Assembly (NCBI GenBank): GCA_945861715.1 | Contig: CAMAVK010000001.1 | Span: forward strand, 458,908 to 522,907 | Direction of reading: 5' to 3' | Length of the DNA: 64,000 nucleotides | Source: Candidatus Woesearchaeota archaeon | Lineage (GTDB): Archaea; Nanobdellota; Nanobdellia; Woesearchaeales; GW2011-AR9 | Part shown: positions 25,961 to 54,000 of the stretch, piece by piece | Layout: every line of letters starts with the position of its first letter | Position numbering within the stretch: the stretch's first letter is position 1 | Position numbers and translations under genes: made by a program | The notes under the pieces: generated by a model | What the model saw: the letters and a program-made list of their open reading frames with translations, nothing else | Told to the model about the DNA's origin: nothing | The model's database searches: none

Positions 25961-26072
25961 CGGGCCCTGAGGGATTTGAACCCCCGACCTCGTGGTACCT
26001 ATCAATTACTCATTCCTTTCGGATTAGCAATGTTAAGAGCCACGCGCTCTAGCCAGCCTGAGCTAAGAGCCC
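25961..26072 (-). tRNA. tRNA-Lys (anticodon CUU) with a ~37-nt canonical-position intron (after nt 37). CCA is not encoded.
   Basis: Minus-strand read GGGCTCT-TA-GCTC-AGGCTGGCTA-GAGC-G-CGTGG-CTCTTA[intron ACATTGC...GATAGGT]A-CCACG-AGGTC-GGGGG-TTCAAAT-CCCTC-AGGGCCC-G. All four stems pair, U33 and A37 are present, and the T-loop is TTCAAAT. Exons are at about 26034-26072 and 25961-25996. Confidence 0.85.
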
Positions 26073-38191: not shown

Positions 38192-39274
38192 ATGATCTAC
38201 GCTACCCTCACCCAAGAAAACCGTACAGAGAACTCGTTTAGTTTAGAAGGAAACACTGCAATTGGTCGCAAGCTCCTTCCGGATAAGGACTTATTCGAGT
38301 TATGGGAACGAAGAATAACCTCTTCCAAGCACAAAAATAATGGTGCCACACGCATGGCGCCCATTTCAGTTACAGAATTACAACATCAATATTCTCAAAA
38401 AAATCTCGATCTCATAATCAGCGACAATATTGACGTATCGCGTCGTCATCTCCTATTTTGTGTGCCTAACTGGGGAATGAATGCCTATCACGTAATCGAT
38501 TTATTCAGTTATTATGGCACCACCGTAAACGGCGAAAACTTAACTCCTGCGGTGCCTAAAAAGGTAAGCCATGGTGATAGAATCACAATTCTAGGCAAAA
38601 CTGAAATCCCTTTTATATTCAAAGAAGTAGAACGCGTTACAAAGTATGAAGCAATTATTATCGCGAACCCAGACGGGACCTTAGACTGTAATGAGCCTAT
38701 CGCAGCGGAACTAGAAGATTTACTTCTCAAACGTAATTTCAAAGTAGACACATTAAAATCAAATGTTCAACTTAAACAAGTAACAAATAGTATAGCACAA
38801 AAAGCGAGATCATTACGGTCGCACGACTATTTATTATTTCTGTATCTTGGGCATGGATCAAAAAACGGCGAATTACGTTTTGCAGATAATGGTTTCGTGC
38901 ATGCCTCAAATTTATACTCCTCACTAAGTACTGTTCCCGCAAAAAAAATCATTTTATTAGATTGTTGTTATGGGAAGAATTTTCTCATTCCTGAGATTCC
39001 TCTGAACTCAGCTGTTGCCGTAAGTACATCGAGGCTAGATCTATCTTACACCAATACGTTTACCAAGGGATTAATTCGACGATTACAAGACCCGAGGGGG
39101 GGTTATTTTGAGCGTGTGATTGATGATGCTTGCCATTATGCCGAAGTAGAATTACGTCTATGTGGGATGGAACCCGGAACAAAAGCCTCAATGGTCACTT
39201 ATTTTAATACAGCAAGAGATGAAGATCGTGAACAAGCTCGCAAAGATATGAATAATTTTATTCATCAAAAATAA
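38192..39274 (+). CDS. FHA domain - caspase-like (peptidase C14, metacaspase/orthocaspase) fusion protein
   Basis: N-terminal FHA signatures: NTAIGRK, VSRRHLLF, GTTVNGENL, GDRITILG. C-terminal C14 catalytic dyad: His in LFLYLGHGSKNGELRF and Cys in KKIILLDCCYGKN (compare the DCCHSG of metacaspases). Confidence 0.65.
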   Translation: MIYATLTQENRTENSFSLEGNTAIGRKLLPDKDLFELWERRITSSKHKNNGATRMAPISVTELQHQYSQKNLDLIISDNIDVSRRHLLFCVPNWGMNAYHVIDLFSYYGTTVNGENLTPAVPKKVSHGDRITILGKTEIPFIFKEVERVTKYEAIIIANPDGTLDCNEPIAAELEDLLLKRNFKVDTLKSNVQLKQVTNSIAQKARSLRSHDYLLFLYLGHGSKNGELRFADNGFVHASNLYSSLSTVPAKKIILLDCCYGKNFLIPEIPLNSAVAVSTSRLDLSYTNTFTKGLIRRLQDPRGGYFERVIDDACHYAEVELRLCGMEPGTKASMVTYFNTARDEDREQARKDMNNFIHQK

Positions 39275-50113: not shown

Positions 50114-50797
50114 CTACTTAAACAACTGCATCACATATTTCTTCGAACCAATATACTCTTGATCCATAATCTCTCGAACTCGAGCTAACTCCATTGCAGG
50201 TTTATACACTCGTTTAGAACTAAGTGCATCATAAATATCCGCGCATGCAAGCATTTCTCCCAAGCTCAAATTAACCGCGTTGGTTTGCCTACGTTCCAAA
50301 CTCCAGTCCCTTCGATCAGACTTGGCTCGAGCATCCACCGGAACCATCAGTTCACGGTTTCTCCTTTCCTCGAGTCGACGATCATCTCCACTACGAGGAT
50401 ACGATGCAATTTGATATTCATGATGACTCACAACAATTTCTCGTACATCTTGTTTAACTCCAGTAAGAATCATAAACCCAAGTCGGGCATGAGATTGCAT
50501 CACTTTTCGCTCCGCTTCATCAAGTGGTCATGCTTTGCACAGTACACAGCCTGGAATATCTTTTTTTCCCACATCATGTAAAGTACCTGCTTCACCAATG
50601 TTTCTAAGCTGCTCATCACACAAATGATTACGCACCCCCAGATACATACTCAAACGTCCAACTCGAACCATATGTTCATAACTATCTTGATGCACTGCTC
50701 GAACCTCCTCTAAGTGTTCTTTAACCGTTTTATCTTCAAGAATGGAAGCATACATAGCAGTAACACGTAATGGAAGTGTGAATTTGTCTCTTGTCAT
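50114..50797 (-). pseudogene. HD-GYP-like (HD superfamily) phosphohydrolase interrupted by one in-frame TGA
   Basis: Upstream piece ...LHDVGKKDIPGCVLCKA, then TGA, then in the same frame PLDEAERKVMQSHARLGFMILTG...VVSHHEYQIASYPRSGDD. This matches the HD-GYP consensus HDIGK..IP..IL.KPGKLT.EEF..MK.H...G.....HHE..DGSGYP, with the stop sitting where the KPG glycine would be. Confidence 0.5.
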
Positions 50798-50903: not shown

Positions 50904-51395
50904 ATGAAATATCTTGCATATTTTCAACCTAGTCCGGAACTTGCAACTCTCATCCAGACTCAGGACTGCATCATAATTCCTTCCTCTGGTTTACACACAA
51001 CACTTTGCACCTTTCACATGGAACAAAACCAAGAGTCCATCCTGATCTCAAACCTTTCGAAAATCCCCCTCAGCGCATTTGAAGTTGAAACTCAAACCAT
51101 CGCCCTTTTTGACAAAGAATCCCTCGTTCTGAAACTAACTCGTCCACCTGAATTATATCAATTACATCAAGACATCACAGAAATAGTACGTACCCACGCA
51201 ACGCCAGAATTCAACCAAAGGTATCAAACATACTTTGGACCAAAATATAACCCTCACATTACTATCTCTAAATCCTACACAGACTTCAACACGTCCACCC
51301 CTCTATTAAGCGGGCACACCTTTCGGGTAGAAAATTTTTATCTAGCAAAAAAAGTAGAAGAAAAGTGGATTGAAATTTCTAACTTTACCCCATAA
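50904..51395 (+). CDS. 2H phosphoesterase superfamily protein (LigT / 2'-5' RNA ligase-like)
   Basis: Two H-x-T/S-x motifs in the correct spacing: GLHTTLCTF and NPHITISKS. Confidence 0.6.
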   Translation: MKYLAYFQPSPELATLIQTQDCIIIPSSGLHTTLCTFHMEQNQESILISNLSKIPLSAFEVETQTIALFDKESLVLKLTRPPELYQLHQDITEIVRTHATPEFNQRYQTYFGPKYNPHITISKSYTDFNTSTPLLSGHTFRVENFYLAKKVEEKWIEISNFTP

Positions 51396-51400
51396 ATAAA

Positions 51401-52108
51401 TTACCTATCACTCAGTTCATCAATCGTCTTCGCTCTCCACTCCAATAAAGCATCATCCTCACTAGGAGCATGCCTGATAGCATAACATATCCCCGCAAGA
51501 CCAAACGATTTCCAAATCGGTTCCACAAAACATGCTGCTCGTTCATACTCGGGAATACGACTGCTCACTTTTGGAATAACTCCAGCACTTCCCGAACAAT
51601 TAATTTTACCTGTTCCATTCCCCATTAAATAGGCAAATCCTTCATCAATCATTTTTTCACCACGATTCGCTACTCTGGCATTTGGACAAATTCGCGCAAC
51701 TATAGAATGTGTTGCTTCATGACGAATCATTTCACTAATTTGCGATTTAACCGAATCCCTCAGCTGTAAAAGTTGACTATCTCTGAACTCAGCGCTAAAG
51801 AAAAATATCTCTCCTTGCTCATTTGTAACGGCAGCTATACGTGCATCTGAAAAAGGAATCCAAGGATAAGTGTTTTCATAAAAGTCATGGTCACCAAAGT
51901 AATGTGGTGCAGCAGTTATCTCACTATGTCCTAATGCCTTTGCTTGAGAAATATACTCGCTATCAAACACAGAGTCAATATACCCCTCAACCAGCTTATC
52001 TCGACCGTACTTTTCATGATAAAAATAGGTACCCCATCTGTTCACAAGTATACCAGCATACATTGCAAGTCCGAGATACATTACCTGTTTTAGCTTTACC
52101 ATAATCAT
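51401..52108 (-). CDS. Membrane-anchored putative zinc metallopeptidase (HExxH)
   Basis: N-terminal TM MIMVKLKQVMYLGLAMYAGILV. HEATH motif in ISEMIRHEATHSIVARI with a downstream EGFAY. Confidence 0.45.
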   Translation of the reverse strand: MIMVKLKQVMYLGLAMYAGILVNRWGTYFYHEKYGRDKLVEGYIDSVFDSEYISQAKALGHSEITAAPHYFGDHDFYENTYPWIPFSDARIAAVTNEQGEIFFFSAEFRDSQLLQLRDSVKSQISEMIRHEATHSIVARICPNARVANRGEKMIDEGFAYLMGNGTGKINCSGSAGVIPKVSSRIPEYERAACFVEPIWKSFGLAGICYAIRHAPSEDDALLEWRAKTIDELSDR

Positions 52109-52140
52109 AGTAACATCAGAAAAACCACTCTAAATGAAAT

Positions 52141-52294
52141 ATGCGGGGGACGTGACTTTCTCATTGTCAATCGATCATTGTCGGTGAACAATATTTGAAC
52201 ACGCGTACCCACTAAGGGACTACCCATTTGACACATTACTGTGACCTCAAGGTAGCGGATTTGACCGCTCTCCCACCCCCGCATTAGTCACGGT
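52141..52294. ncRNA. GC-rich structured RNA candidate closed by a 9-bp terminal helix. Identity and strand unassigned.
   Basis: ATGCGGGGG...CCCCCGCAT at the ends (9 perfect bp). Internal hairpin AGCGG-atttga-CCGCT. Repeated GTGAC/GTCAC elements. GC well above background. Lies in the 30-nt gap upstream of the minus-strand peptidase gene. Confidence 0.35.
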
Positions 52295-52402
52295 GAATAA
52301 ACAGTGACCTATTTAAAAAGATTCCGACGGCAATTGAAGACATAACAAAAATTAATAATGACGCAAGAAAATTAAAAATCTAAAAAAGAAAAAAACAAAA
52401 GC

Positions 52403-52708
52403 TTAACGCTTCTTAGCAGGAGACTTCTTAGCAGGAGCTTTCTTTACTGCCTTTTTAGCAGGAGCTTTCTTAGCAGCCTTTCGACCACGTGCCATCTTTG
52501 CTCGACAAACGTTTCCTTTACCATCGATAAAGTACAAATAACCAGATTCCTTCTTCACACCAGCTCGTGCAACAAGTTCTTTCTTGGTCTTACCTTTCTT
52601 GCGACCTGCTCTGCTCATTACAGCTCGGCAAACATCGCCATTCTTATCAACGAAGTATAGATACCCACCTTCTTTCTTTACAGCAGTTTTTGCTACGACT
52701 TCAGCCAT
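52403..52708 (-). CDS. Small basic protein: two 36-aa tandem repeats plus a histone-H1-like AKK-rich tail; putative nucleic-acid-binding protein
   Basis: Probable start at the ATG at 52706-52708 (MAEVVAK...). Repeat VAKTAVKKEGGYLYFVDKNGDVCRAVMSRAGRKKGK then VARAGVKKESGYLYFIDGKGNVCRAKMARGRKAAKK. Tail APAKKAVKKAPAKKSPAKKR. AGAGGTGGA is upstream. The track ORF (52403..52810) extends further upstream through a low-complexity leader. Confidence 0.5.
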   Translation of the reverse strand: MAEVVAKTAVKKEGGYLYFVDKNGDVCRAVMSRAGRKKGKTKKELVARAGVKKESGYLYFIDGKGNVCRAKMARGRKAAKKAPAKKAVKKAPAKKSPAKKR

Positions 52709-52839: not shown

Positions 52840-54000
52840 CTAATTCAGCCCAGCATCAACCCGTTCAGGCAAATCAACTGCACTTACGTTTGGCACATCA
52901 ATCGTTGGTAACTCAGCCCGATTTTTCGTGATAGAAAGCCGATTGGATAAAATATTATACTCTTTACAAAATCGGAGTAAATTATCTGTCTTTCGTTTTT
53001 CTGGCTCACAATGCAGCACCTCACGAATAGAGTACGCAAACAAGTTCCGAGACTCCTTTGGTAACATCTGCATAAAAGGTGACCATGCAAGTGCTTGAAC
53101 AATGCGTTCAACATTGGATGTTTCTAAAACATTTGCTCTAATAAATTTTTCCACCTCCAATCCATCGCGTGATTCAAGTCGAGCAAATGGATACCTATCT
53201 AACAGTTCTAATGTTACAAGACCAAGTGCATAATAATCTGATTTCAAAGTTGGGCACCCTCGAGCCTGTTCGGGAGCGACATACTCAACCGTTCCACGAA
53301 ATGTCCCATCATCTGGTAAACAGTTTGCTTCCCCTAACCTTAATTGATCAATATTTCGAATGACTCGGCTTTCAAGTGACAGTGCAGCTGTATAATCAAT
53401 GAGTACAATACCTTCAGCTCCAAGCATGATATTACCTGGTTTAATGTCCAAGTGCATAAACCCGAGTGAGTGAAACGCATCAACTGCATCGGCTAGTTCA
53501 GAACAAAATTCTACTTTCTGTGATTTTCCATATGGTACTCGAAGATGCGAAAGTGGGTCTCCTTGTACCCGGTCCATCCCCACAAGTACACTTAACCACC
53601 CCTCATCATCAACAAATAATGTGTGGGAGCAATACCCCACCAGTCGTCCACCGTCCATTACCGAATATTTTTTTGCATCTTGTAAAATCCCAATCTCTTG
53701 GGTAATCATCTGCAATCGAACAAGCTCTGAGGGAAAGAAATCGACTATCTCTGCAAATGTCTCATCTCCAATCCTACGGCTAACCTCAAATTGCGAAAAT
53801 CTCCCCGTTTGACCAACATAGGTGCATTCTGAATCAATACTTCTCCCCTCACACCCTAATAACTTAATCTTCATTAATTTTGCAACTCGATAAGGCGACT
53901 CGGTGGCATATACAATCCCAAAACCACCTCTACCTAACTCTTCTCGTAGTCCAAAATATTCTTGAATTGTTTTCGTAACCATTTTATAAATAAGTATCAA
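52840..54000 (-). CDS. Eukaryotic-like Ser/Thr protein kinase (Hanks type) with a C-terminal extension
   Basis: Gly loop LGRGGFGIVY. VAIK Lys (RVAKLMK). Catalytic loop HLDIKPGNIML. APE motif EYVAPEQ. Confidence 0.8.
   Translation of the reverse strand: MILIYKMVTKTIQEYFGLREELGRGGFGIVYATESPYRVAKLMKIKLLGCEGRSIDSECTYVGQTGRFSQFEVSRRIGDETFAEIVDFFPSELVRLQMITQEIGILQDAKKYSVMDGGRLVGYCSHTLFVDDEGWLSVLVGMDRVQGDPLSHLRVPYGKSQKVEFCSELADAVDAFHSLGFMHLDIKPGNIMLGAEGIVLIDYTAALSLESRVIRNIDQLRLGEANCLPDDGTFRGTVEYVAPEQARGCPTLKSDYYALGLVTLELLDRYPFARLESRDGLEVEKFIRANVLETSNVERIVQALAWSPFMQMLPKESRNLFAYSIREVLHCEPEKRKTDNLLRFCKEYNILSNRLSITKNRAELPTIDVPNVSAVDLPERVDAGLN

Follow-up and report, generated by a model that had tools for sequence, protein, structure and literature searches.

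What RNA, if any, is encoded by a G+C-rich element of a woesearchaeal genome whose two ends pair perfectly and whose interior resists assignment to a family? The question is raised by positions 52,141 to 52,294 of a stretch of 64,000 nucleotides (nt) from Candidatus Woesearchaeota archaeon (GenBank assembly GCA_945861715.1, contig CAMAVK010000001.1, positions 458,908 to 522,907), hereafter called the window. An original prediction, made from the sequence alone, had described an unassigned structured RNA with the minus strand as the informative one, had found that it fitted neither a tRNA, even one with several introns, nor a 5S rRNA, and had considered that it could be a cis-regulatory 5' leader. 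The analysis reported here indicates, with a probability of about 0.93, that the locus 52282..52142 of the minus strand is an archaeal tRNA-Leu(GAG) gene that is functional and carries two introns of the protein-spliced, bulge-helix-bulge (BHB) type. The expectation of a structured RNA gene on the minus strand is borne out by this assignment, and a complete tRNA-Leu(GAG) appears once introns of 19 and 38 nt are removed, contrary to the statement that no tRNA could be folded. A 5S rRNA indeed does not fit, as its model is matched nowhere in the window when the gathering score is applied, nor at the locus itself when E-values up to 10 are allowed. The gene is of an ordinary, already known kind, with introns at the canonical site and at one major known non-canonical site.

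A class II tRNA-Leu gene in three exons

The complete class II tRNA-Leu(GAG) gene is 141 nt long (52142..52282, minus strand) and runs from position 1 at 52282 to the discriminator base A73 at 52142. Exon 1 (38 nt, 52245..52282), delimited by the sequence and by a family alignment, contains successively the acceptor strand GCGGGGG, UG (including U8), the D-stem strand GGA, the D-loop GAGCGGUCAAA with G18G19, the D-stem strand UCC, a G, the 5' strand of the anticodon stem CUACC, and the loop nucleotides UUGAGG with the anticodon GAG at 52248..52246. A 19-nt intron (intron 1, 52226..52244) separates it from exon 2 (32 nt, 52194..52225), which is supported by the sequence, the family alignment and a covariance model (R1, see below). 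This exon carries G38, the 3' strand of the anticodon stem GGUAG, the variable region UCCCUUAGUGGGUAC, the T-stem strand GCGUG and the T-loop nucleotides UUCAAA. The variable region, 15 nt long, forms a long arm with a CCC/GGG stem. After a 38-nt intron (intron 2, 52156..52193), exon 3 (14 nt, 52142..52155), identified from the same three sources as exon 2, provides U60, the 3' T-stem strand CACGU, the 3' acceptor strand CCCCCGC and A73. The CCA end is not encoded.

Joining the exons in silico yields an 84-nt product, which ARAGORN calls tRNA-Leu(gag). The cloverleaf was defined by an acceptor stem of 7 base pairs (bp), a D-stem of 3 bp as in class II tRNAs, anticodon and T-stems of 5 bp each, and 7-nt loops. 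All 23 cloverleaf pairs form in the spliced sequence, the D-stem having its 3 bp. The universal nucleotides are also present, namely U8, A14, G15 with C48, G18G19, U33, G37, U54-U55-C56, A58, the G53:C61 pair and A73; the columns of U8, A14, G18G19, U33, U54-U55-C56, A58 and G53:C61 are invariant in alignment A1. Moreover, the long variable arm, A73 at 52142 and a leucine anticodon followed by G37 place the RNA among class II leucine tRNAs. Features of this kind are generally known as identity elements for the leucyl-tRNA synthetase. In 14 open reading frames (ORFs) of the window, CUU and CUC account for 45% of leucine codons, so that a GAG isoacceptor is needed. Recognition of the locus completes the decoding set for these two codons.

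The features on which the element was first noticed can be reread in the light of this anatomy. The 9-mers ATGCGGGGG (52141-52149) and CCCCCGCAT (52276-52284) do exist and pair perfectly, but the supposed 9-bp terminal helix is the 7-bp acceptor stem with two flanking pairs, and the end placed at 52294 overshoots by 10 nt, the element ending at 52284 and the gene proper occupying 52142-52282. About 65 perfect 9-bp inverted repeats with loops of 60-250 nt are expected from Markov-1 random sequence, and the window has 58; for the G+C-rich ones the expectation is about 1.2 and the count 2. Thus, the terminal repeat taken alone is not beyond chance; the weight comes from the sequence between its arms, seven of the nine pairs being those of the acceptor stem. 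The hairpin AGCGG-ATTTGA-CCGCT is likewise present, at 52254-52269, but is not a conserved structure of the family: 60% of the cells pair, no covariation is seen, and 500 of 500 shuffles do as well. It is incidental: its bases belong to the D-loop, to the 3' D-stem strand and to the first part of the anticodon stem. The TTCAAAT-like loop reported on the minus strand is found there as GTTCAAAT, in which TTCAAAT is the T-loop. As to base composition, the gene reaches 51% G+C against 39.5% for the window, a difference that falls to 0.41-0.45 against about 0.39 nearby when 150-nt windows are considered; the excess is confined to the exons (62%), the introns having 35%.

It can be noted that the two pairs which extend the acceptor stem (52283-52284 with 52141-52142) join A-2 and U-1 to A73 and U+1. 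They recur in two of the related genes described below (L008 and L009) and are not found in two other loci (L012 and L031). They are probably due to chance in A/T-rich flanks.

The intron at site 37/38

Intron 1, UCACAGUAAUGUGUCAAAU, was located by a BHB scan of the 141-nt precursor, which looked for two 3-nt bulges around a 4-bp helix, with the cut between the second and third bulge bases. It occupies gene positions 39-57 (52244..52226) and falls at site 37/38. Its surroundings form a strict hBHBh' motif. The outer helix has 6 bp (the 5-bp anticodon stem and one extra pair), the central helix UUGA:UCAA has 4 of 4 pairs, the bulges GG|U and AU|G have 3 nt each, as in the strict 3-4-3 geometry, and the inner helix CACA:UGUG (4 bp) surrounds a GUAA loop. 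A motif of this quality occurs somewhere in the sequence in 12 of 1000 shuffles. Strict BHB-like motifs, counted as those having a central helix of 4/4, an outer helix of at least 5 bp and an inner helix of at least 4 bp, amount to 42 on the two strands of the window. Since they are so common, it is the placement at 37/38 of a tRNA that carries weight for intron 1.

These motifs are unevenly distributed, with 35 on the minus strand and 7 on the plus strand, that is, five times more on the former, presumably because the G+T-rich strand permits more G-U pairs. Their frequency and strand skew make BHB geometry alone a poor predictor of introns in the window. A second strict-looking BHB at gene positions 80-98 was discarded; it would remove the T-loop, and about three motifs of such weak quality are expected per shuffle.

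The intron at site 59/60

Intron 2 interrupts the T-loop at site 59/60 (gene positions 90-127, window positions 52193..52156), as deduced from the minimum free energy (MFE) fold, from the relatives and from R1. In the unconstrained MFE fold, the 5-bp T-stem is followed by a 3-nt 3' bulge AG|U, a 3-bp helix UUC:GAA, a 3-nt 5' bulge AAA facing a single A, and a 7-bp helix internal to the intron. This corresponds to a relaxed motif (hBH or HBh'), that is, one well-formed bulge with its flanking helices. The intron and exon 3 both begin with U, so that a cut placed at 59/60 or one placed at 60/61 would yield identical products. Group I and group II introns were ruled out for both insertions by their sizes (19 and 38 nt) and by the absence of an Rfam match.

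Could this intron encode a functional small RNA, such as a C/D-box guide RNA? A guide of this type is hosted by the tRNA-Trp intron of some Euryarchaeota. The string AAUGAUCGA of intron 2 looks like a C box enlarged by one base, and a cmscan search gives a match to the nematode snoRNA model ceN53. Nevertheless, this match (14.5 bits, E = 5.6) is far below the gathering score of 50, and a C box (RUGAUGA) and a D box (CUGA) with a terminal stem, all kept in related genes, are not found together: the intron has no CUGA D box, and the closest orthologue has none of the box-like strings in its own intron at this site. At 38 nt, it is also shorter than archaeal C/D small RNAs are generally known to be. 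An RNA function of the excised intron is therefore hardly credible, and intron 2 is best regarded simply as a tRNA intron.

Recovery by a covariance model

A covariance model, R1, was built from tRNA-Leu(GAG) sequences taken in spliced form from seven other organisms, with the window sequence excluded and the cloverleaf as structure. In a search of the entire window, its full length (model positions 1-84) aligns with 52142-52282 of the minus strand, with 76.1 bits and E = 6.3e-16. The alignment places insertions of 20 nt directly after G37 and of 39 nt directly after A59, each of which includes one model position. The sole other match at E-values up to 10 is the T-arm of a tRNA-Lys gene, with 9.7 bits. 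A general scan covering the two strands of the 64 kb, which required a G+C-rich 7-bp acceptor helix followed by U8 and a T-stem with a GTTCRA loop, insertions being allowed, retains two loci only, the tRNA-Leu(GAG) locus and the tRNA-Lys(CUU) gene.

The latter gene (25961-26072, minus strand) has a 37-nt intron in its anticodon loop. It is the only tRNA that Rfam recognizes in the window and is missed by ARAGORN with default settings.

Orthologues and conservation

The 5' exon, searched as the pattern GCGGGGGT-N4-GAGCGGTCAAA-N10-TTGAGG, is absent from 185,579 representative genomes and from 241 million metagenome records, even when its stems are left free. A second pattern described the architecture of the gene by the end of the D-loop, the anticodon loop YUGAGG, GTTCRAA, a gap of 26-56 nt and CCCCGCA. 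It retrieved 31 loci, 25 of which parse as tRNA-Leu(GAG) with an insertion at 59/60; those set aside are L005, L018, L020, L021 and L032, which are not T-loop-intron genes, and L022, whose 5' end is cut. After splicing, ARAGORN reports Leu(gag) for 24 of the 25. The exception, L023, results from a mis-parse of the first intron by the script, this intron appearing by eye to be like that of L017. The 25 genes come from Woesearchaeota, Micrarchaeota, Iainarchaeum, Aenigmatarchaeota, Nanoarchaeota (one metagenome-assembled genome, MAG), Thor-, Heimdall- and Hodarchaeota, and Methanosarcinales MAGs. Their 59/60 introns measure 19-45 nt. An intron at 37/38 is also present in six of them (L009, L013, L014, L016, L017 and L023), and the anticodon loop is uninterrupted in the remaining 19, so that the presence of this intron varies among orthologues.

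The closest orthologue, L008, belongs to Candidatus Woesearchaeota archaeon UBA10192 (DUFX01000075.1). Of its 84 exon nucleotides, 79 (94%) agree with the window gene, and its anticodon stem shows a compensatory change from C30:G40 to G30:C40. It has no insertion at 37/38, and its loop, UUGAGGG, is the one predicted for the window gene after splicing. At 59/60, it has an intron with the fold topology of intron 2 and a different interior; about 26 of the 38 positions of intron 2 can be aligned with it, the intron ends included. The genes that surround L008 differ from those of the window.

In an alignment of eight spliced family members, 99.5% of the cells are paired and 13 of the 23 pairs have changes on both sides. 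None of 500 shuffles reaches the observed pairing, and sliding the 3' partners by 1-3 columns reduces it to 40-54%.

Could the 59/60 intron date far back, having been passed on by vertical descent and maintained by selection in DPANN, Asgard and some Methanosarcinales lineages, instead of being a neutral insertion that is often re-acquired? The idea comes from the 26 or so intron positions that align between the window gene and L008 and from the sharing of the site by 25 genes of several phyla. It should be noted that the search pattern demanded an insertion at 59/60, so that the breadth of the distribution says nothing on intron frequency. On balance, such a selected inheritance seems unlikely. 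If it were true, the intron could be selected because it gates the folding or the modification of the T-loop, or because it shields the gene from elements that integrate into tRNA genes.

Among the loci attributed to Methanosarcinales, L009 (CAZOXR010000070.1) comes from a MAG labelled Methanosarcinales or Methanoperedens. It has both introns, and its exons are 85% identical to those of the window gene. The endonuclease of Methanosarcinales is expected to be of strict specificity, and a two-intron gene is therefore unexpected there; the label may reflect mis-binning. L015, L021 and L018 are also matches from MAGs labelled in this way, L018 being a normal gene with a chance match downstream.

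Points against a functional gene

Several observations weigh against the assignment. First, the locus escapes the standard detectors. The unspliced sequence gives no ARAGORN call, either by default or in the anticodon-intron mode; at lowered thresholds the program proposes a "tRNA-Stop(tta)", which was rejected as a spurious misfolding of the unspliced locus with broken stems. The Rfam tRNA family RF00005 has no match at the unspliced locus, whether at the gathering score or at E-values up to 10. Over the whole window, Rfam at the gathering score returns the tRNA-Lys gene alone. These failures are the expected consequence of two large insertions (19 and 38 nt) in a class II tRNA. Second, when cmsearch is run with its filters off, R1 gives a poorer, truncated alignment of 54.4 bits, in which the T-arm is closed inside intron 2; this is regarded as an artefact of that mode. 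Third, the sequences of the family alignment were retrieved by a pattern derived from the gene, and the conservation of their loops is therefore obtained by construction, the stems alone having been free to vary. Fourth, the z-score of the precursor fold is modest (-2.34). Finally, intron 2 falls below the strict 3-4-3 BHB. The fourth central pair is A.A, leaving a central helix of 3/4, and the inner helix lies one position out of the canonical register and scores 0 in the strict register. Since its motif is only a relaxed one, cleavage needs an endonuclease of broad specificity.

The first and the last of these points would agree with a decaying, non-functional tRNA-Leu pseudogene in which the T-loop insertion is no longer spliced: the A.A mismatch and the displaced 5' bulge of a relaxed motif could be signs of decay, and the silence of the detectors would not be surprising. 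Yet none of the 23 stem pairs and none of the universal nucleotides is lost, the CUU and CUC codons to be read are abundant, and a promoter-like box and a T-run are in place (see below). Furthermore, the same relaxed geometry is kept in L008, at 94% identity, and in many other lineages, and cleavage of relaxed motifs at 59/60 is documented for another DPANN lineage (Fujishima et al., 2011, PMC3239211). A pseudogene is thus very unlikely, and a functional tRNA-Leu(GAG) gene is the preferred reading.

Flanking signals and the downstream reading frame

A TATA-like box, TTTAAATA, can be read on the minus strand at 52310..52317, with its end 27 nt before position 1; similar A/T boxes stand 26 nt upstream of the tRNA-Lys gene of the window and 25 nt upstream of the L008 gene. 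On the other side, a run of five T (52120..52124, minus strand) lies 18-22 nt downstream of the tRNA 3' end, ahead of the ATG at 52108 with which the next ORF begins. To judge from the sequence, the box may act as an archaeal promoter and the T-run as a terminator.

The next ORF (51401-52108, minus strand) starts 34 nt downstream of the tRNA element, on the same strand. It had been named a metallopeptidase; its HExxH motif (HEATH) is indeed present, but no Pfam match accompanies it. In the form that begins at its long start, the protein has no recorded entry. Given this arrangement, the element could have been a cis-regulatory 5' leader or a riboswitch-like element of that ORF, as had been suggested. 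Several results speak against this possibility. Every base of the element is explained by a tRNA and its introns, and the element has its own TATA-like box and is separated from the ORF by the T-run. No regulatory family of Rfam is found at the locus: at E-values up to 10, the 451-nt region that was searched gives two matches of chance level, to ceN53 and MIR535, with nothing that points to a tRNA, a 5S rRNA or a regulatory RNA. The ORF is an orphan, with no homologue besides itself among 5.8 billion proteins, and cannot therefore explain a conserved RNA; by contrast, the tRNA is conserved in other genomes, beside unrelated genes. None of the immediate neighbour genes of the window was found by tblastn beside the orthologous tRNA loci. 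The likelihood that the element is a leader is consequently minute.

Proposed processing of the transcript

By analogy with established archaeal tRNA processing, the following pathway can be proposed. The gene would be transcribed from its own TATA/B-recognition-element (BRE) promoter, and the ends of the precursor would be trimmed by RNase P and RNase Z. The splicing endonuclease EndA would cut within the 3-nt bulges of the strict BHB carried by the anticodon stem at 37/38 and of the relaxed BHB carried by the T-stem at 59/60, leaving 2',3'-cyclic phosphate and 5'-OH ends. A ligase of the RtcB type would then join the three exons, the introns being probably circularised, and CCA would be added post-transcriptionally. 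The expected product, a class II tRNA of 84 nt (87 nt once CCA is added), would read the CUU and CUC leucine codons. None of these processing enzymes was found in the 64-kb window, in which EndA and RtcB do not appear among the 16 ORFs scanned against Pfam. From the locus it follows that the organism should possess a splicing endonuclease that can cleave relaxed BHB motifs.

Other features of the window

A frame encoding an HD-domain protein (50114-50797, minus strand) is broken by a single in-frame TGA (50528-50530), between ...GCVLCKA and PLDEAERKVMQSH.... TGA closes 4 of the 36 long open frames of the window, so that a genome-wide recoding is not indicated; the interruption could reflect a pseudogene, a sequencing error or a local read-through. 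About 750 nt from the tRNA gene, an ORF of 163 aa (50904-51395, plus strand) has a borderline match to the 2H/'2'-5' RNA ligase' superfamily (26.9 bits for a cut-off of 27). On the upstream side, 52403-52708 (minus strand) encodes a very basic protein of 101 aa with two tandem repeats (GGYLYF.D..G.VCRA.M) and a KKAPAKK-rich tail. It has no Pfam match and, from its sequence, may be a small nucleic-acid-binding protein.

Signalling-type domains are represented by a protein with FHA and caspase domains (38192-39274, plus strand) and by a Ser/Thr protein kinase of the eukaryotic type (52840-53982, minus strand), which is worth noting in an apparently small archaeal genome. Pfam confirms the Ser/Thr kinase, as well as a PUA-domain protein and a PAC2 proteasome chaperone. 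TFIIB-, MetRS-, MutS-, L1- and L10-like ORFs were named by eye from their N-terminal sequences alone. Taken with the woesearchaeal orthologue of the tRNA gene, the G+C content of 39.5% and a source contig of about 797 kb, these archaeal genes suggest that the DNA probably comes from a DPANN archaeon of small genome, related to Woesearchaeota.

Comparison with known systems

The surveys of multiple-intron archaeal tRNA genes by Marck and Grosjean in 2003 and by Sugahara and co-workers in 2007 and 2008 are reported to have centred on Thermoproteales and other TACK archaea. Genes of this kind, with BHB introns at 37/38 and at non-canonical sites, have been reviewed (PMC4090602; PMC4033280). The window gene resembles them in having short BHB introns at 37/38 and in the T-loop, in giving a normal cloverleaf after joining of the exons, and in being invisible to standard finders. 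The difference lies in the host, since the closest orthologue of the window gene is from Woesearchaeota (DPANN), and the presumed mechanism is the same. Thus, the locus leaves the knowledge of tRNA introns unchanged. Its introns are the reason why it was overlooked by the standard tRNA finders and in the original prediction, and genes of this sort, when missed by default finders, make small archaeal genomes seem to lack essential tRNAs.

The pre-tRNA-Cys(GCA) of ARMAN-2 (Ca. Micrarchaeum) offers a parallel for intron 2. It has an intron at 59/60 with a relaxed hBH motif, which is cut in vitro by an epsilon2 endonuclease (Fujishima et al., 2011, PMC3239211). Both genes share the T-loop site, a relaxed BHB carried by the T-stem and a DPANN host. 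They differ in amino acid specificity (Cys as compared with Leu), in intron length (13 nt as compared with 38 nt) and in the number of introns, the ARMAN-2 gene having a single one whereas the window gene has an additional intron at 37/38. With the gene of UBA10192, the likeness extends to the 59/60 site, the fold topology and the distance of the upstream TATA-like box; that gene is without the 37/38 intron, and its T-loop intron has 44 nt instead of 38.

Endonucleases of the (alpha-beta)2 and epsilon2 types, together with loop-bearing alpha4 enzymes of DPANN, have been associated with non-canonical introns (PMC5829648; PMC4090602). Non-canonical and multiple tRNA introns have been described in Woesearchaeota, Pacearchaeota and other DPANN genomes, in a study which covers the disrupted tRNA genes of DPANN and Asgard lineages and in which EndA enzymes bearing specificity loops are described from DPANN (Kaneta et al., 2018, PMC5829648). 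The incomplete tRNA sets of DPANN and Asgard genomes point, according to the same study, to further disrupted genes that have escaped detection. The tRNA-Leu(GAG) locus is an example of such a gene.

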